This document shows positions 8,751 to 36,576 of a stretch of DNA of 64,000 nt, piece by piece; position 1 is the stretch's first letter; each line of letters begins with the position of its first letter. Position numbers and translations under genes: made by a program. The notes beneath the pieces were generated by a model, which did not search any database, was not told the origin of the DNA, and saw nothing but the letters and a program-made list of their open reading frames with translations. The DNA comes from Patescibacteria group bacterium (lineage in GTDB: Bacteria > Patescibacteriota > Doudnabacteria > UBA920 > O2-02-FULL-48-8), in the NCBI GenBank assembly GCA_036278915.1, contig DASUKB010000002.1, forward strand, positions 95,162 through 159,161. Direction: 5' to 3'.

Positions 8751-8824
8751 GGTGTCGTGGCCGAGCGGTCAGGCGTGGGTCTGCAAAACCCTTTACACCG
8801 GTTCAACTCCGGTCGACACCTCCA
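8751..8824 (+). tRNA. tRNA-Cys (anticodon GCA)
   Basis: Cloverleaf by eye: acceptor GGTGTCG/CGACACC, anticodon loop CTGCAAA, T-loop TTCAACT, U73 discriminator, CCA encoded; TATAAT box at 8733-8738. Confidence 0.7.
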
Positions 8825-8828
8825 CAAA

Positions 8829-8915
8829 GCCTGGGTGGCGGAACTGGCATACGCATGGGACTTAAAATCCCAGGCCCGCAAGGGATTGAGGGTTCAACTC
8901 CCTCCCCAGGCACCA
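8829..8915 (+). tRNA. tRNA-Leu (anticodon TAA), long variable arm
   Basis: Acceptor GCCTGGG/CCCAGGC, anticodon loop CTTAAAA, long variable arm, T-arm GAGGGTTCAACTCCCTC, CCA encoded. Confidence 0.85.
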
Positions 8916-8936
8916 TAAATATTTTTTATAAATTTA

Positions 8937-8961
8937 AAAGCCCTCCGAATGGAGGGCTTTT
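8937..8961. terminator. Bidirectional rho-independent terminator (tRNA pair on the + strand, gene 8964..9572 on the - strand)
   Basis: AGCCCTCC-GAAT-GGAGGGCT with flanking A/T runs. Confidence 0.8.
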
Positions 8962-8963
8962 AG

Positions 8964-9572
8964 TTATGACGTCTGCAAAGGCAGTTGGCTTATTTCGTTT
9001 AAAATTTTGTTGGCAGCCAAAACCCAGTTAGCGTTTGTATGACCGACATAGCGATGAACCATCTTTTGCGGAGTGTCCAGTCCGTCGGCCACATATTTTT
9101 GGGAAATGATGCGGTTGACGTCGACAATGGCATCATCAAGGTTGTCGTATCGTTTCAGGTTCCAGGCTCCACCAATGCCCCAGCAGTTATTGTACTTGTA
9201 ATGTTTGCACATTGTGGATTCACCGTTTGAGACGGCGACCACAAGTTGCCAGTTATTCTGCGCTAGAAGCGTTGCGGCATGGTCAGCCAGCGGCGAACCT
9301 TTCTTAACCAGATAGTCATGCAGGATAACCACGTTTTGGTTGAAAATTTGCTGTGAGTTGTCTACGTCGGGCAGTTCAGACGAAGCGAGTTGTGCCGTGT
9401 AGTCTCTCGGGATTATAAGTTTTGTTGTGCTGTTTATTTCAAAGACGATTGGCTGTTGGTTTGACGTTTGGGCAGAAGCGGACATCGGCAATAACAGCGA
9501 AGATGTCGCAATGATCAGGAGTATAAATAACGCCCGATCAAAGGTGCTCAAGCGCTCAAATCGGCTTGTCAT
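8964..9572 (-). CDS. Secreted glucosaminidase-like peptidoglycan hydrolase, paralog 2
   Basis: Shares LHDYL..GSPLA...ESxxCxHY...NCWGIGG block with 7846..8601; N-terminal signal peptide. Confidence 0.5.
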   Translation of the reverse strand: MTSRFERLSTFDRALFILLIIATSSLLLPMSASAQTSNQQPIVFEINSTTKLIIPRDYTAQLASSELPDVDNSQQIFNQNVVILHDYLVKKGSPLADHAATLLAQNNWQLVVAVSNGESTMCKHYKYNNCWGIGGAWNLKRYDNLDDAIVDVNRIISQKYVADGLDTPQKMVHRYVGHTNANWVLAANKILNEISQLPLQTS

Positions 9573-9836
9573 CTTTGGAATTCCTTACCAGCAATCTCCC
9601 TTTATAGTTCCCGCCCGCCGAATTTTAGCTCGGAAGGTTATGGGTAAAGGCAGTTGATAGTTTGGTCAGACCTTTATTAAGGACTTAAAGAACAGGTTGC
9701 GGGCTTTTTACAAAAAAGCTTAATTTATTGGGCTTTTTTGTTGCCAACCCCACCCTCCGGAGAGGGATGGGGTACGCAACTATAGATATTAGCATAAAAC
9801 GGGAGTTTTGTCAATAGCTTACGCTTGGATCCTGAA

Positions 9837-9866
9837 ATTGACCAAAGCCCGATTTTTACGTATAAT
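9837..9866 (+). promoter_or_regulatory. Sigma70-type promoter (TTGACC-17-TATAAT) driving the tRNA cluster
   Basis: Near-consensus -35/-10 with 17-nt spacer; tRNA-Leu starts ~19 nt downstream. Confidence 0.7.
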
Positions 9867-9884
9867 TGTTAAGATTTTCCATAT

Positions 9885-9971
9885 GCACGGGTGGCGAAAC
9901 TGGTACACGCACTACCTTGAGGTGGTAGCGCCCGCAAGGGCTTGGAGGTTCGAGTCCTCTCCCGTGCACCA
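9885..9971 (+). tRNA. tRNA-Leu (anticodon GAG)
   Basis: Acceptor GCACGGG/CCCGTGC, anticodon loop TTGAGGT, long variable arm, CCA encoded. Confidence 0.85.
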
Positions 9972-9973
9972 AA

Positions 9974-10050
9974 GGACGCTTAGCTCAGCTGGTTAGAGCG
10001 TCTCGTTTACACCGAGAAGGTCAAAGGTTCGAATCCTTTAGCGTCCACCA
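9974..10050 (+). tRNA. tRNA-Val (anticodon TAC)
   Basis: Acceptor GGACGCT/AGCGTCC, anticodon loop TTTACAC, T-arm AAGGTTCGAATCCTT, CCA encoded. Confidence 0.85.
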
Positions 10051-10198
10051 AAAAATGGTATAATAAGTATCCAAAGGCAGTTGTTTTGAAAACAAATCAA
10101 AAATGCCAACGAAGTGCATTTTTGATTTGAGAGGAGCAACGATCGACCGTAGCACAATTGCGGTTGCAATTTGCGAAGTGTCGATCAGTTGCGACGAC

Positions 10199-10273
10199 GC
10201 CTCGGTAGCTCAGTGGTAGAGCGCAGCCCTGAAGAGGCTGGCGTCGTCAGTTCAATTCTGACCCGAGGCACCA
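10199..10273 (+). tRNA. tRNA-Phe (anticodon GAA)
   Basis: Acceptor GCCTCGG/CCGAGGC, anticodon loop CTGAAGA, CCA encoded; preceded by a 150-nt spacer with its own extended -10 (TGGTATAAT at 10057-10065). Confidence 0.85.
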
Positions 10274-10347
10274 GCAGGTATGGTTTAGTGGTAGAACACG
10301 TCCTTGCCAAGGACGATGCGCGGGTTCGATTCCCGCTACCTGCTCCA
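10274..10347 (+). tRNA. tRNA-Gly (anticodon GCC)
   Basis: Acceptor GCAGGTA/TACCTGC, anticodon loop TTGCCAA, CCA encoded. Confidence 0.85.
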
Positions 10348-31210: not shown

Positions 31211-32242
31211 ATGTGCAAAAAGTGCAACAATTCAAAATATATGGAAAAACAAGAAAATAAGGGTGAAATCATCATATACAAGTCAGATTCTGGTCCAGAG
31301 CTTCAAATAAAACTGGAGAACGATTCGGTTTGGCTGACACAGGCTCAAATGGCTGAGCTGTTTGATAGGGACAGGGATACTATTTCGGAGCATATTCAGC
31401 ATGTCTATAAAACCGCAGAACTAAGCCCAAATTCAGTTACCCGGAAATTCCGGGTAACTGCCCGTGATGGTAAAAGCTATAATGTTGAGCACTATAATCT
31501 CGATATGATTATCTCGGTGGGTTATCGGGTGAATTCCAAACGTGGCACACAGTTTCGTATCTGGGCAACTAAACACCTTCGTGGTTATTTGCTTAAAGGT
31601 TATTTGATAAACGAGAGAAGGTTGCGGGAAAATCAGGATGCCAAATTAAAAGAATTACAACAAGCACATCTTTTGATTCAACAAGCGCTTGAAAGCAGAC
31701 GGTTGGATGGATTTGAAAAGGAATTGGTTAACATCATCACTGATTATACAAATACCTGGATTGTGCTCAACGAGTACGACAGTGGAAAGCTGAAAATTTC
31801 TGATGTCAGTAAAAACAAGACGAGCTATTTGGATTTTGGAAAGGTCACGGATTCCGTAAGTCGTTTTAAAAACAGACTGCAGGCAAACAAACTGGCAACA
31901 GCTGATTTTGGGAAACCAAATGGAAACAAACTGCAAAAGATCCTGACCCGCGTCAAACAAAATTTGGATGGGGTTGATGTTTATCCTTCAGCCGAAGAAA
32001 AAGGCGCGCACTTATTTTATTTTCTCATTTCAGAAAAACCGTTTGCCGACGGCAATAAACGTATCGCATCTCTAATTTTTATTTTATTCCTCATTGAAAA
32101 TCATTTGTTGTACAACCGCAAAGGCGAGCGCCGCATTAACGATTCAGCATTGGCCGCGCTGGCGTTGCTTGTGGCTGAATCCAAACCGTCGCAGAAGGAT
32201 GTCATGGTAAAATTAATTGTGAATTTGATAAATAAAAAGTAA
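31211..32242 (+). CDS. RhuM-family virulence-like protein fused to a Fic/Doc (death-on-curing) domain with an atypical motif
   Basis: N-terminal WLTQAQMAELF...YNLDMIISVGYRVNSKRGTQFRIWAT (RhuM family); C-terminal KPFADGNKRIA aligns to the Doc HxFx(D/N)GNKR motif but with Lys in place of the catalytic His; low GC (~40%). Confidence 0.7.
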   Translation: MCKKCNNSKYMEKQENKGEIIIYKSDSGPELQIKLENDSVWLTQAQMAELFDRDRDTISEHIQHVYKTAELSPNSVTRKFRVTARDGKSYNVEHYNLDMIISVGYRVNSKRGTQFRIWATKHLRGYLLKGYLINERRLRENQDAKLKELQQAHLLIQQALESRRLDGFEKELVNIITDYTNTWIVLNEYDSGKLKISDVSKNKTSYLDFGKVTDSVSRFKNRLQANKLATADFGKPNGNKLQKILTRVKQNLDGVDVYPSAEEKGAHLFYFLISEKPFADGNKRIASLIFILFLIENHLLYNRKGERRINDSALAALALLVAESKPSQKDVMVKLIVNLINKK

Positions 32243-33296: not shown

Positions 33297-34325
33297 ATGA
33301 CCAAGGGCAGCAACAAAATAGAAGCTTCGGGAAATTTGGAGGAGACGCTTGCGTCTATCCGTGACAAATTTGGCGAAGGCGCAATTATGACCTTATCGAA
33401 AGCGCGCTCTATGGATGTCGAGACGATTGCCACCGGATCGATCTCGCTCGACTTGGCTTTGGGAGGCGGCATCCCGCGCGGACGCATTATAGAAATTTTC
33501 GGACCAGAAGGGTCTGGCAAAACAACTTTGGCTATGCACGTTATCGCTGAAATTCAAAAGGACGGCGGCGTGGCCGCGTTCGTGGATGCCGAACACGCGC
33601 TCGATCCGGAACGGGCCAAAGCCGTGGGTGTGAAGATAGATAAACTTTTGATTTCGCAGCCCGACTCCGGCGAGCAAGCCTTGGATATTGTGGAAGCGTT
33701 GGTGCGGTCGAATTCCGTGGACATCATTGTCGTCGATTCGGTGGCCGCGCTCACGCCGCGCGCCGAACTTGAAGGCGAGATGGGCGACTCGCATATGGGG
33801 TTGCACGCGCGATTAATGTCGCAAGCGCTTCGAAAATTGACCAGCATAATTTCCAAATCAAAATCCACGGTAATCTTCATCAACCAGATCCGTATGAAGA
33901 TCGGCGTTATGTTCGGCAACCCCGAAACCACAACCGGCGGCAAGGCCTTGCCGTTCTACACTTCGGTGCGCATCGAAATCCGCCGCCTGGCACAGATTAA
34001 GCAGGGCGAACAGATCGTAGGCAACCGCGTGAAGGCCAAGGTTGTGAAAAATAAGGTGGCGCCGCCGTTCCGGTCCACGGAGTTTGATATTATGTTTTCG
34101 GAAGGCGGCATCTCGTACGCCGGAGACCTGCTCGATACAGCCGCCCGCTACAATATCGTGGCCAAATCGGGGAATACATTCAGTTTTGGTGAAACGAAAC
34201 TCGGAGTGGGCCGTGAAAACGCGAAAAAATACCTACTGGATAACCCAAAGCTAGCAAAAGAGCTAGACAAAGCGGTCCGGCTGAAGTCTAAGACCATAGA
34301 ATTTGGTGAAACTTCCGCGGTGTAA
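33297..34325 (+). CDS. recA: Recombinase RecA
   Basis: GPEGSGKTT Walker A, L1/L2 loop regions, 342 aa. Confidence 0.97.
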
Positions 34326-34361
34326 GCCTTAAATTCCGAATCAAAACTCCAACATTTATAA

Positions 34362-34397
34362 AATTGCTCCTGAAAATTGACAGGAGCAATTTTTTTT
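34362..34397 (+). terminator. Rho-independent terminator of recA (AATTGCTCCTG-loop-CAGGAGCAATT plus T7)
   Basis: 11-bp stem and T-run; the stem also contains the TTGACA of the next promoter. Confidence 0.85.
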
Positions 34398-34405
34398 GCT
34401 ATAAT
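34377..34405 (+). promoter_or_regulatory. Consensus sigma70 promoter TTGACA-17-TATAAT with extended -10 (TGCTATAAT), embedded in the recA terminator
   Basis: Perfect -35 and -10 hexamers, 17-nt spacer; no ORF of 60 aa or more downstream for ~600 nt. Confidence 0.75.
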
Positions 34406-34413
34406 GTCTTCAG

Positions 34414-34895
34414 AACATTAAAAACCGAATATAAATCACTGGCCGAATAAGGATAGGAGAGAATTTTCAGTTCTCAAGCGCACGTTTGTGGGCTGTAAGT
34501 TCTTTCACTATTCGTCATAGCTGTTCTAATCCAGCTGCTTGAAAAACAAAAATAAAAAATCAAAAAGTTTTATATAAACAAACAAAAATAAAACAAAAAG
34601 TTTGAGGTCTCACGACCATAAGAACAGTGATTGAACCAATGCTTATAAAGCGATTAGATATATGAGCAGCAAAAAGGTTTCTGATCTAACATGTTTACCT
34701 CTGTTCCAGGCTTTGGAGCTGAAAGCAACAAAATTTTGCTTTAAGCCCCGTAACCTGAGAACGGAGATAAGCTGAGAACAGAGATCTCCGCAGCGGTATC
34801 ACGCTACATAATTTATATATTGGGCGGTTCGATACCGCTGCTATCCAATTTTACTTAGCAGCCAAATTTACAGTCTTCAACGGAAGGCTTTTTTG
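34414..34895 (+). ncRNA. Candidate non-coding RNA (~480 nt) of unknown class between recA and the dksA-like gene
   Basis: ORF-free 680-bp gap in a compact genome; consensus promoter upstream; 11-bp inverted repeat GCAGCGGTATC...GATACCGCTGC enclosing a T-arm-like GGCGGTTCGATACCGC; weak terminator-like hairpin plus T-run near 34871-34895; class not assignable by eye. Confidence 0.35.
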
Positions 34896-34947
34896 TTTAC
34901 CCAATAAACTCCCTTCTCCTAAATTAGGAGAAGGGTCGGAGATGAGG

Positions 34948-34978
34948 TATTTGGTCTGATGCTGTAAATTTGCTATAA
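34948..34978 (+). promoter_or_regulatory. Sigma70-type promoter with extended -10 (TTGGTC-17-TGCTATAAT) for the dksA-like gene
   Basis: TATAAT at 34973-34978. Confidence 0.6.
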
Positions 34979-35002
34979 TATTTTTAAATTAACCAAGATG
35001 AT

Positions 35003-35362
35003 ATGATCTCCAAAGAACTAATTGAAGAAAATAAACAAAAATTGCTTGCCGAGCAAAAACAAATTCGCGCTGTGCTAAATCGCGAAGATATCAAAGACGG
35101 CAAGGGTGAGTTTCCCGGCGACTACAAACCAAAATATGATGAGCTTGGAAACGAGGAAGGGGATAACGCTTCCGAAGTTGAAAATTTTAGCAACCAGCTC
35201 GGCGTCACCGAAAGCTTGGAAAGCAAACTCAAGAAAGTCGAATGGGCTTTAGCGCGAATTGAAAATGGCACATACGGCGTATGCGCCGAAGGAGATGAGA
35301 TAGAAGAAGATCGTTTGCGTGCTCTGCCAACAGCCGAGACTTGCGTTAGACACGCGCAGTAA
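35003..35362 (+). CDS. DksA/TraR family C4-type zinc-finger-like protein (degenerate Cys pattern)
   Basis: Coiled-coil N-terminus and C-terminal YGVCAEGDEIEEDRLRALPTAETCVRH resembling the TraR/DksA finger with only two Cys. Confidence 0.6.
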   Translation: MISKELIEENKQKLLAEQKQIRAVLNREDIKDGKGEFPGDYKPKYDELGNEEGDNASEVENFSNQLGVTESLESKLKKVEWALARIENGTYGVCAEGDEIEEDRLRALPTAETCVRHAQ

Positions 35363-35389: not shown

Positions 35390-35863
35390 ATGAAAAACAA
35401 ACTCTTTGTTTACTGTTTACTGCTTGCTGTTCTCTTGTTTGTAGACCAAATCACGAAGGCGATTTTTGCCAATCGTGATTTTTATTTTCTGGGCATGCAT
35501 TTCCATCTCGTAAAAAATTATGGACTATCGTTTGGTTTGAATTTCGGCAACGCCTTGGATTTGGGAATCATCGTAGCGGCGCTTGTGGCGTTCCTGGTTT
35601 ATCTATTTGTCAATTCCAGTTCTGGAAAAATTAATTATGGCGTGCTCCTGGTGGTAGCCGGCGCTGCAGGAAATTTGATAGATCGGCTGCGATTGGGGTT
35701 TGTGCGGGATTTTTGGGATATCCGACTGGGATTTACATTTAATTTTGCCGATGCTTTGATTTTTATTGGGTTGCTTATGCTGTTGTTCGGCAAAGATTAC
35801 AGTAAAACATCGCCGAATGCGGATAGTAATACAGACGCCATGCGCCAAATGCCTCAAAATTGA
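35390..35863 (+). CDS. lspA: Lipoprotein signal peptidase (signal peptidase II)
   Basis: Four TM helices; GNLIDR and FNFADA conserved LspA motifs. Confidence 0.85.
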   Translation: MKNKLFVYCLLLAVLLFVDQITKAIFANRDFYFLGMHFHLVKNYGLSFGLNFGNALDLGIIVAALVAFLVYLFVNSSSGKINYGVLLVVAGAAGNLIDRLRLGFVRDFWDIRLGFTFNFADALIFIGLLMLLFGKDYSKTSPNADSNTDAMRQMPQN

Positions 35864-35964
35864 GTTATGCTGCGAAGGTTTTTTGGCAAATTTACTGATG
35901 ACTTAAAATTTCGGGCCGTGTAGGATGAAAAAGTCATTAGTATGGAAGGAGGTGTTTACAAAAT

Positions 35965-36084
35965 ATGGCAGAACGAAAGAGAAGCGGCCGGGGCTGGTTT
36001 GGGGATAGCGTAGGACACGCCAAAGCCGGACGTCTAGGTGGGCGCGCACGCGGCAGAAACAGGAATAATTCAAGTTCAAGTTAA
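35965..36084 (+). CDS. Small KGG-motif general stress protein (39 aa), absent from the ORF track
   Basis: GGAAGGAGGTG SD 6 nt before the ATG; MAERKRSGRGWFGDSVGHAKAGRLGG resembles the GWFGD.EGHSEAGRKGG KGG stress repeat. Confidence 0.5.
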   Translation: MAERKRSGRGWFGDSVGHAKAGRLGGRARGRNRNNSSSS

Positions 36085-36137
36085 AGCCCCAATTTATTTT
36101 ATGGAGAGACAAACAGACGGTTTTAAAAATCGCCTGT

Positions 36138-36166
36138 TTGTTATGTAAGAGGAAACAAGTTATAAT
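36138..36166 (+). promoter_or_regulatory. Sigma70-type promoter (TTGTTA-17-TATAAT) for the composite tRNA-Ile unit
   Basis: 17-nt spacer; followed by a small hairpin CAGAAAG-TTAAAT-CTTTCTG plus T4. Confidence 0.6.
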
Positions 36167-36200
36167 ATGGCAGAAAGTTAAATCTTTCTGTTTTAATTTA

Positions 36201-36367
36201 AGCGGTAGAACAAATGTCTTACCCGCCCGACCGAACGACTTTATGGGCATGTAGCTCAGCGGTAGAGCAAATGTCTTATACACATTGGGTCCCTGGTTCG
36301 AATCCAGGCATGCCCACCATAATTTCAATCAATCGTTCGGTCGTTCGGAATCCTTCCTGGCCCACCA
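36201..36367 (+). other. Composite tRNA-Ile locus: 21-nt 5' fragment homologous to D-loop-to-anticodon of tRNA-Ile (36201-36221), arm CCCGCCCGACCGAACGAC, intact tRNA-Ile(TAT), arm GTCGTTCGGTCG..., 3' fragment TTCGGAATCCTTCCTGGCCCACCA
   Basis: AGCGGTAGAACAAATGTCTTA matches AGCGGTAGAGCAAATGTCTTA within the intact tRNA; arms are mutually complementary; the 5' arm begins CCCGCCCGAC, as at the Arg locus. Confidence 0.6.
36245..36319 (+). tRNA. tRNA-Ile (anticodon TAT)
   Basis: Acceptor GGGCATG/CATGCCC, anticodon loop CTTATAC, T-arm CCTGGTTCGAATCCAGG, CCA encoded. Confidence 0.75.
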
Positions 36368-36407
36368 ATAAACAAGTGTCAGTTCTGCAAACAAAATGTA
36401 CTTTGTG

Positions 36408-36429
36408 GAAAACCCGGATAGGGTTTTTT
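36408..36429 (+). terminator. Rho-independent terminator after the tRNA-Ile unit
   Basis: AAAACCCGGATAGGGTTTTTT. Confidence 0.75.
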
Positions 36430-36487
36430 ATTTTGCCTTATTTTCTTAATATTTAGGAGCTCTTGACAGTAGGTGAACGATCGTATA

Positions 36488-36545
36488 CCATAAGGTCATG
36501 GAAAGTAAAACGAAGGAATCGGTGGCTTTGGGAGCCGCCCCAAAC
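36488..36545 (+). promoter_or_regulatory. Long imperfect palindrome in the lexA leader (CGAAGGAATCGGTGGCTTTGGG-AGCCGCC-CCAAACCAACTGATTCCTTCG)
   Basis: ~21-bp arms with a 7-nt loop, ~35 nt upstream of the lexA ATG; candidate operator or RNA structure. Confidence 0.4.
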
Positions 36546-36576
36546 CAACTGATTCCTTCGAACTTCCTACAAAATT

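Follow-up and report, generated by a model that had tools for sequence, protein, structure and literature searches.

A predicted structured RNA of about 0.5 kb upstream of a DksA/YteA-like gene in Candidatus Doudnabacteria-like bacteria

Introduction

Few bacterial RNAs that are large and highly structured lack a known function, and those described earlier opened up unexpected biology; HEARO, for instance, became the guide RNA of IscB. Bacteria of the candidate phyla radiation (CPR, Patescibacteria) have tiny genomes of ~1 Mb in which non-coding DNA is scarce, few of their regulatory RNAs are known, and we know of no RNA biology that has been worked out in the Doudnabacteria lineage. Here, we analyse a stretch of 64,000 nt from a Patescibacteria genome (GenBank assembly GCA_036278915.1, contig DASUKB010000002.1, positions 95,162 to 159,161 of the forward strand; the whole stretch is called the window, and its first nucleotide is position 1), in which the spacer between recA and a dksA-like gene very probably encodes a stand-alone structured non-coding RNA (ncRNA).

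The closest described counterparts are OLE, ROOL, GOLLD, the raiA motif and HEARO. These RNAs are longer than 400 nt, have many covarying helices, conserved junction and loop nucleotides and a long-range loop-loop helix, are found in one lineage, are transcribed from their own promoter and end at their own terminator, and their function cannot be deduced from neighbouring genes. The RNA described here resembles them in all these respects. Yet it shares no sequence or structure homology with them (no Rfam 15 match at E<=10), and unlike these large ornate RNAs it is borne by CPR bacteria, has no phage or tRNA-cluster association and contains two pairs of mutually exclusive helices. ROOL and GOLLD form RNA nanocages (PMC12286853). 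The disordered linker of ROOL is reported to have little or no conservation (PMC12286853), whereas the present RNA contains two long A-rich strands that are conserved in sequence.

Another parallel is offered by CrcZ and CrcY of Pseudomonas, which titrate Hfq. These are stand-alone transcripts of ~400-500 nt with their own promoter and terminator and with repeated unpaired (AAN)n motifs, as is the RNA in the window, but the latter has two such motifs only, and these lie inside an elaborate conserved fold. As protein-sequestering RNAs, 6S RNA and CsrB are looser likenesses.

Results

A conserved transcription unit between recA and a dksA-like gene

The spacer between the end of recA (34325) and the next real gene (35003) measures 677 nt and holds no credible open reading frame (ORF). 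A first-pass annotation of the window had proposed a separately transcribed ncRNA of ~480 nt in this ORF-free region, and the proposal is borne out by conservation from the -35 box to the terminator in 28 copies and by strongly covarying helices. The only ORFs inside the spacer are mechanical ones of 33-39 aa, none of which is conserved. The transcription signals are as follows.

33297-34325, recA, the upstream neighbour of the spacer
34360-34393, plus strand, intrinsic terminator hairpin of recA with a 13-bp stem and an 8-nt loop
34377-34405, plus strand, RNA promoter: TTGACA at 34377-34382, a 17-nt spacer with TG, and the extended -10 box TGCTATAAT at 34397-34405
34412-34895, plus strand, predicted ncRNA of ~484 nt, its 5' end placed 7 nt past the -10 box and its 3' end at the terminator T-run
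34872-34895, plus strand, intrinsic terminator of the RNA: a 7-bp hairpin at 34872-34889, then TTTTTT
34971-34979, plus strand, extended -10 box TGCTATAAT of the dksA/yteA-like gene, given as context and outside the RNA

The promoter matches the sigma70 consensus at 12 of 12 positions and carries the TG extension in addition. It is the sole promoter match in the 64-kb window even when one mismatch is allowed (0.05 expected). Such a consensus promoter predicts high, constitutive expression. TTGACA had also been noticed within the recA terminator, and indeed the -35 box sits within the loop and 3' arm of that hairpin. In the alignment, TTGACA and TGnTA(T/A/G)A(A/C)T are retained in all full-length copies. 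The hairpin and T-run pointed out near 34871-34895 form the terminator. Each of the 18 full-length copies has a hairpin ahead of the invariant T-run, its stem sequence varying, and the T-run counts 6-8 T across copies. With its own promoter and its own intrinsic terminator, both conserved, the RNA is an independent transcription unit, ~485 nt long in the window, while the copies of relatives measure 420-560 nt.

The second extended -10 box that had been assigned to the dksA-like gene is present as well, and most relatives have TGnTATAAT or TGnTATACT past the terminator and ahead of the dksA-like start codon. These signals are tightly packed: in most relatives the T-run of the RNA lies only ~17 nt ahead of the dksA-like extended -10 box. 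Between the two signals the window also carries the palindrome that the annotation had listed (34911-34935, perfect 12+12, CCCTTCTCCTAA/TTAGGAGAAGGG), but since it is absent from every relative it is not part of the RNA element and is, judged by the alignments, a window-specific insertion.

The RNA in related genomes and its fixed neighbourhood

In a protein homology search, the RecA of the window is 100% identical to a protein of an NCBI 'Patescibacteria group' metagenome-assembled genome, although an exact-protein look-up gave no record, and its nearest named relatives are Candidatus Doudnabacteria. Nine related loci (referred to, like all further loci, by L numbers) were taken, with RecA proteins 82-89% identical to that of the window. 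In all nine the gene order is ftsK, an optional fic/rhuM gene, a rodZ-like gene, recA, a gap of 670-760 nt, a dksA-like gene and lspA. When the gaps are aligned, the similarity sets in precisely with the -35 box and stops with the terminator T-run (GGCTTTTTTTGTTG), and the flanking DNA is unalignable. Comparative alignment of this recA-dksA region, which the annotation had put forward as a way to look for covariation, revealed conservation and covarying helices.

An invariant 21-mer of the core, CTATTCGTCATAGCTGTTCTA, served as probe for more copies. It yielded 17 further stretches in the Joint Genome Institute (JGI) metagenomes, whereas a scan of IMG/VR viral contigs with the same 21-mer gave no match. 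In every metagenome locus long enough to show the flanks, the RNA lies between recA and the dksA-like-lspA pair, although RecA identity falls to 75% and that of the DksA-like protein to 46%. With a profile built from the full-length alignment, nhmmer recovered the other main-clade copies at E-values of 1e-79 to 1e-119. Applied to 80 other recA loci, the profile hidden Markov model (HMM) brought up two remote copies, one in L001 (E 1e-17) and one in L015 (E 2e-11). No other locus of the 80 has a dksA-like gene, and in both of these the RNA is situated directly upstream of that gene, with an exonuclease-helicase gene standing between recA and the RNA. Three additional loci reached via the L015 protein (L109, L111 and L113) have a gap of 770-900 nt in the same place that matches the profile HMM, and in these, too, the upstream neighbour of the RNA is the exonuclease-helicase gene rather than recA. 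The downstream neighbours in the window are the following.

35003-35362, plus strand, gene of the DksA/YteA family (119 aa) with a match to Pfam zf-dskA_traR; the NCBIfam yteA/DksA matches are below cut-off
35390-35863, lspA, which follows the dksA-like gene and forms with it the invariable downstream neighbour of the RNA

In total, 28 distinct copies were collected (the window and 27 others), from Doudnabacteria-like genomes and metagenomes, and all of them lie immediately 5' of a DksA/YteA-like gene, on its strand. The Candidatus Saccharibacteria label of locus L015 (CAZKVS010000004.1, 'uncultured Candidatus Saccharibacteria') seems doubtful for this metagenome-assembled genome, and because it conflicts with a DksA-like protein that is 78% identical to a Doudnabacteria protein in NCBI, we claim only a Doudnabacteria-like range. 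As far as sampled, the family thus appears to be confined to Candidatus Doudnabacteria-like CPR bacteria.

Covariation defines the secondary structure

The structure was derived with RNAalifold from an alignment of 18 full-length sequences, for which 82 pairs were predicted, 40 of them with compensatory changes. The structure tested was this fold minus one spurious helix (a pairing of the P1 GGAG with the terminator T-run at columns 74-77/587-590, which was discarded) plus the loop-loop helix described below, giving 83 pairs. In this structure, 98.1% of cells are paired, and 40 pairs show compensatory changes. By comparison, 87% of cells are paired after column shuffling, with none of 500 shuffles reaching any of the observed measures, and only 35-45% when the 3' partners are slid. 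A core alignment of 25 copies that includes the divergent clades, made of two joined segments (one running from Y as far as the first A-rich strand, the other starting shortly ahead of H3 and including H4), gave 30 pairs that are 96% paired, 14 of these with compensatory changes. The elements, from 5' to 3', are listed here.

34451-34514, plus strand, P1, a long irregular hairpin whose 5' base strand X (GGATAGGAGAGAA) pairs with Y
34499-34514, plus strand, Y (GTTCTTTCACTATTCG), a nearly invariant strand whose core CACTATTC (34506-34513) pairs with Z
34518-34537, plus strand, H2, the hairpin TAGCTG-TTCTAATC-CAGCTG with the loop TCTAATC (34525-34531) in the kissing helix
34541-34605, plus strand, two A-rich single strands, each with AAAACAAAAAYAAAA, their sequence kept in all clades
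34606-34617, plus strand, H3, the hairpin GGTC-TCAC-GACC, whose fourth pair is CG, GC, AU, UA or UG across copies
34622-34636, plus strand, Z (GAACAGTGATTGAAC), the 3' partner of Y in the long-range helix
34641-34667, plus strand, H4, the hairpin GCTTATA-loop-TATGAGC, whose loop GATTAGA (34652-34658) pairs with the H2 loop
34675-34787, plus strand, H5, a long interrupted hairpin of ~110 nt, in which 23 of 32 pairs show compensatory changes
34790-34841, plus strand, the 3' domain, with the 11-bp stem A:B (34790-34800/34831-34841) around a 4-bp inner helix (34802-34805/34823-34826) and an AU-rich loop

The core closed by Y:Z contains H2, the two A-rich strands and H3. Compensatory changes were found in 4 of the 7 pairs of the upper P1 helix (34468-34475/34489-34495) and in 8 of the 11 pairs of stem A:B, and the H2 stem covaries in divergent copies (TAGCTCG/CGAGCTG, AGGCG/CGCCT and AGCTGG/CCAGCT). 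Stem A:B corresponds to the 11-bp inverted repeat that had been placed at 34795-34850; the repeat is real, but its arms lie at 34790-34800 and 34831-34841. The A-rich stretch that had been reported is likewise present, at 34541-34605.

Purifying selection on the plus-strand RNA

When the window is compared with the nine relatives, identity over the whole RNA is 60-85%, and over its core 72-93%. In the same pairs, identity at third codon positions is no more than 35-53% for recA and the dksA-like gene. The RNA is therefore under purifying selection. A search for a conserved ORF among the copies found none that is shared and no ATG starts in register. Small ORFs whose frames stop at alignment columns 172 and 185 were seen in 7 and 9 of the 18 copies, respectively, with TTG, GTG or ATG starts within the variable P1, and these were rejected as candidate genes.

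The GC content of the RNA region is 30-42%, versus about 50-58% in recA. Compared to shuffled sequence, the stretch from promoter to terminator folds with z = -8.0 on the plus strand and z = -7.7 on the minus strand. An RNA from the minus strand would thus have an equally good fold energy, but the promoter, the terminator and the G-U pairs fit the plus strand only. Several G-U pairs are invariant, e.g. 357-432 and 148-167, and since these would be A-C mismatches on the opposite strand, the RNA is on the plus strand.

The AT-rich composition, the low-complexity A-rich stretch and the mechanical ORFs are features that decayed or selfish DNA (a pseudogene or the remnant of a mobile element) or a small-protein gene could also display. 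Such an origin is very improbable, considering that conservation is well above that of neutral sites, that 40 base pairs are maintained by compensatory changes, that position and orientation are fixed in all loci, and that neither a shared ORF nor an IMG/VR match was found.

Long-range contacts and conserved single strands

The loops of H2 and H4 form a kissing helix of 6-8 bp that is kept in 28 of 28 copies. The helix, 7 bp long in the window, is 99.4% paired in 25 sequences, with compensatory changes at 3 of the 7 positions. It occurs in seven variants: UCUAAUC/GAUUAGA, UCUAACC/GGUUAGA, UCUAGUC/GACUAGA or GGCUAGA, UCCAACC/GGUUGGA, UCAAGUC/GACUUGA, CCAGUC/GACUGG and CCAAUC/GAUUGG. The long-range helix Y:Z likewise varies in concert, as CACUAUUC/GAACAGUG (with one A-C mismatch), AGCUCUUC/GAGGAGCU, AACUUUCC/GGAAAGUU and UACUGUCC/GGACAGUA, and 4 of its 8 pairs show compensatory changes.

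Kissing loops can also join separate molecules, and it could be argued that the loop-loop helix, and perhaps the alternative helices described in the next section, form between copies of the RNA, so that dimers or bigger assemblies made of RNA alone would arise, as in OLE, ROOL and GOLLD. The large size, the many helices, the one-lineage range and the kissing helix kept by compensatory changes would all agree with this, and strand exchange between copies would equally explain why each alternative helix has two equivalent partners. Moreover, the covarying loops of ROOL and GOLLD, first read as tertiary contacts, proved to be intermolecular, quaternary bridges (PMC12286853). However, no sequence feature of the present RNA demands intermolecular contacts, its H2 and H4 loops are not self-complementary, and it has no homology to OLE, ROOL or GOLLD. 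An intramolecular contact would also be sterically plausible, as H2 and H4 flank the same Y:Z helix. We therefore consider self-assembly improbable.

Most single-stranded linkers are variable, but three segments are invariant across clades: the junction CGUC(A/G)(U/A)AG ahead of H2, UUG(A/U/C)AAAACAAAAA(U/C)AAAA after H2, and AAACAAA(A/C/U)A(U/C)AAAA(C/U)AAAA ahead of H3. The motif AAAACAAAAAYAAAA occurs in the window only at the two A-rich strands, each of which consists of five or six AAN triplets. Divergent copies have a variable hairpin between these two strands. Directly after the first A-rich strand, the divergent clade carries AUGUAG, in which a stop codon comes immediately after a start codon (L015, 7722-7727; L109, 2449-2454; L111, 2585-2590; L113, 2587-2592), which is absent from the main clade, including the window.

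Mutually exclusive helices and the possibility of a cis-regulatory leader

Alternative helices were scored by duplex energy. One of them involves the 3' strand of stem A:B.

34837-34862, plus strand, alternative hairpin B:C, in which GCTGCTA (34837-34843) pairs with TAGCAGC (34856-34862), in competition with A:B for shared bases

In all 18 full-length copies, B (34831-34843) can pair either with A (-19 to -24 kcal/mol) or with C (-7 to -18 kcal/mol), and in all clades the three strands change together, the A/B/C variants being GCAGC/GCUGC/GCAGC, GGAGC/GCUCC/GGAGC, ACAGGGC/GCUCUGU/ACAGAGC and CGGGGC/GCUCCG/CGGAGC. A similar choice exists for the 5' extension of Y, whose two possible partners are X (the 5' strand at the base of P1) and the 3' part of Z, and here too all three strands change together; by inspection, this overlap is present in the divergent clades as well. 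Two conserved pairs of mutually exclusive helices (X:Y versus the Y:Z extension, and A:B versus B:C) suggest co-transcriptional refolding or two-state switching.

An intrinsic terminator after two mutually exclusive helices that covary three ways, on the same strand and upstream of a conserved gene, is reminiscent of riboswitch and T-box leaders. The kissing loop is shared with the cobalamin and lysine riboswitches; in some riboswitches (cobalamin) such loops join the sensor to the expression platform, and lysine riboswitches also have one. The RNA could then be a very long cis-regulatory leader, riboswitch-like or sensing a protein or RNA, in which the structured body would serve as sensor, A:B would act as anti-antiterminator and B:C as antiterminator, while the terminator would set the share of transcripts from the strong promoter of the RNA that continue into dksA-like-lspA. 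In line with this, all 35 loci that show both the RNA and the DksA/YteA-like gene have the former immediately ahead of the latter and on the same strand, even where recA is not the upstream neighbour. In the L090-type clade and in L088, moreover, C overlaps the 5' strand of the terminator stem, which is the classic attenuator layout.

Several observations do not fit a leader. In most copies an extended -10 box follows the terminator and precedes the start codon, which indicates that the dksA-like gene has its own promoter, although read-through remains compatible with this. In most close relatives, as in the window itself, C is set apart from the terminator stem by 9-25 nt and has no overlap with it, so B:C would not prevent termination. 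A:B is always stronger than B:C, the T-run is 6-8 T long, and no known aptamer class matches. With 420-560 nt, the RNA is two to three times, by another count several times, the size of known leaders such as riboswitches and T-box RNAs. Finally, since gene order is conserved on both sides of the RNA, adjacency alone is weak evidence. A leader is thus a possible but, in our view, rather unlikely explanation, and the roles of a trans-acting RNA and a cis-acting leader are not mutually exclusive.

The RNA matches no known family and is not a transfer-messenger RNA

Searching the window against Rfam 15 gave no family match for the RNA at the gathering score, and none at E<=10 on 34250-35050; searches with five divergent copies gave none at E<=0.5. 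The best hits are noise, e.g. mir-1781 with E = 0.1. CrcZ is the only Rfam model that spans the region, with 11 bits and E = 1.7, which is far under its gathering score of 95, so the RNA is not a CrcZ member. At these same thresholds, there were no hits to RNase P, signal recognition particle (SRP) RNA or 6S RNA, nor any known aptamer or T-box class among the matches. In the literature open to our searches, we found no such RNA for CPR, Doudnabacteria or Saccharibacteria.

Some resemblances noticed by eye were rejected. Those to RNase P (GGAGAAAGCC, GAAGGAAACCUGC and AAGAAC...GCUUAUA) were judged to be due to chance, as these bases lie in a local hairpin or in the middle of the molecule and not in the RNase P arrangement. 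The rod with a large central bubble that characterizes 6S RNA is absent, the helices having small internal loops only. A tRNA interrupted by a group I intron was discarded, since its ends show no covariation, neither a D-arm nor an anticodon stem can be drawn, and no intron model matched at E<=10. GUUCUUUCAC bears some likeness to an rrn boxA, but its bases are paired in P1 or Y:Z.

The first-pass annotation had weighed a transfer-messenger RNA (tmRNA) and doubted it. A standard or unusual tmRNA would use GGATAGG (34452-34458) and CTATCC (34841-34846) as acceptor, a T-arm at 34823-34838 and an NPAA-stop tag at 34531-34542. The similar size, the strong housekeeping-type promoter, the A-rich single strand beside a small hairpin and the long-range pairings indeed fit a tmRNA, and the window taken alone shows a GCT...AAT CCA GCT GCT TGA frame, a TTCGA hairpin and a 6-bp end-to-end pairing. 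However, ARAGORN detected 14 tRNAs and no tmRNA in the window and no tmRNA in related loci, and Rfam did not detect one either. The acceptor pairs only in the window and its closest relatives: its 3' strand is replaced by CTAAACC, CCAAACC or CAACAAC in L081-L084 without compensation in the 5' strand, and GGATAGG pairs locally in P1. The T-arm-like GGCGGTTCGATACCGC turned out to be the 3' strand region of the covarying 11-bp stem A:B, to which the stem bases of the supposed T-arm belong. Its loop sequence is not conserved either (TTCGATA in the window and TCTGATA, ACTGACT, TCAGAAG or TATGAT in relatives). The tag frame does exist in the window, but it is broken in L082 and L090-type copies. Its stop TGA (34540-34542) is TGT or TGC in L082, L090, L094, L095, L104 and others, and a 1-nt indel upstream (TTCTTTCAC versus TTCTCCAC) shifts the frame. 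In place of CCA there is ATT, and position 3:70 would be A-U rather than the G3-U70 of tmRNA. With no covarying acceptor stem, conserved T-loop, CCA, G3-U70, tag frame or stop codon, the tmRNA explanation is hardly credible. By all these comparisons, the RNA matches no known family and is not a tmRNA.

A possible trans-acting role

We lean slightly towards a combined explanation, in which the RNA stands alone and acts mainly in trans, as a scaffold or decoy ribonucleoprotein (RNP) that displays the A-rich strands. Such an RNA would be abundant. Its kissing loop and Y:Z would lock a rigid core. Exposed on it, and available to a partner, would be the two invariant A-rich strands, (AAN)5-6, together with the invariant junction CGUCAUAG. 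This partner may be an A-rich-RNA-binding protein, the ribosome or the RNA polymerase machinery, and the RNA would serve as RNP or decoy in trans. Its mode of action would be like that of the protein-binding housekeeping RNAs CrcZ, 6S and the OLE RNP, without being related to them.

A fuller version of this proposal, which we regard as about equally likely to hold or to fail, is that the RNA represents an undescribed class. It would act in trans, as an RNA or an RNP, and belong to the permanent equipment of Doudnabacteria-like CPR cells; it would have a locked core, an A-rich platform and two conformational switches, and would be more than a leader. Its target may be the machinery of transcription or translation, where it may work jointly with the DksA/YteA-like RNA polymerase factor or in parallel to it.

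Several points weigh against a mainly trans-acting scaffold. The transcript is predicted from sequence, its 5' end being set by the promoter alone, and covariation cannot tell an intramolecular from an intermolecular kissing helix. There are two A-rich motifs only, fewer than in known sponge RNAs. The strict same-strand adjacency to the dksA-like gene and the alternative helices beside the terminator fit cis-regulation equally well. No match to Hfq, CsrA or SmpB was found by tblastn, but the ~0.9 Mb of related-locus DNA searched contains no whole genome, which makes this result uninformative.

A 0.5-kb RNA gene that is under strong selection in a tiny genome likely does something important. 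The family is a defined, testable object, with boundaries, a secondary structure, one tertiary contact and two candidate switches, and the neighbouring gene, which encodes a factor of the RNA polymerase secondary channel, points to concrete tests of binding.

Other features of the window

The recA-dksA spacer had been described as the longest non-coding gap of the window. The spacer between lspA and lexA (35864-36576, 713 nt) is longer, but it is not empty, because it holds a tRNA-Ile gene and a 39-aa ORF that is probably a real gene. This Arg/Gly-rich ORF (MAERKRSGRGWFGDSVGHAKAGRLGGRARG..., 35965-36084, plus strand) lies downstream of lspA and has no Pfam match. It was found by tblastn in at least 13 related loci and probably encodes a small basic protein.

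The tRNA-Ile gene (36245-36319, plus strand), also downstream of lspA, has the anticodon UAU (tat) and is conserved in the clade, being present at 6842-6916 in L081, 6880-6956 in L082, 7012-7086 in L083 and 6902-6978 in L084. In most bacteria, AUA is read by a lysidine-modified CAU tRNA; the conservation of tRNA-Ile(UAU) thus suggests an unusual AUA decoding system.

Upstream of recA, a gene with a RhuM/Fic domain (31211-32242, plus strand) is located between ftsK and the rodZ-like gene. It is found in most relatives and is absent from L082 and L083, and it appears to be a variable insertion within an otherwise fixed gene order. The 64 kb contain 14 tRNA genes, six of which (Cys, Leu, Leu, Val, Phe and Gly) lie within 1.6 kb at 8751-10347.

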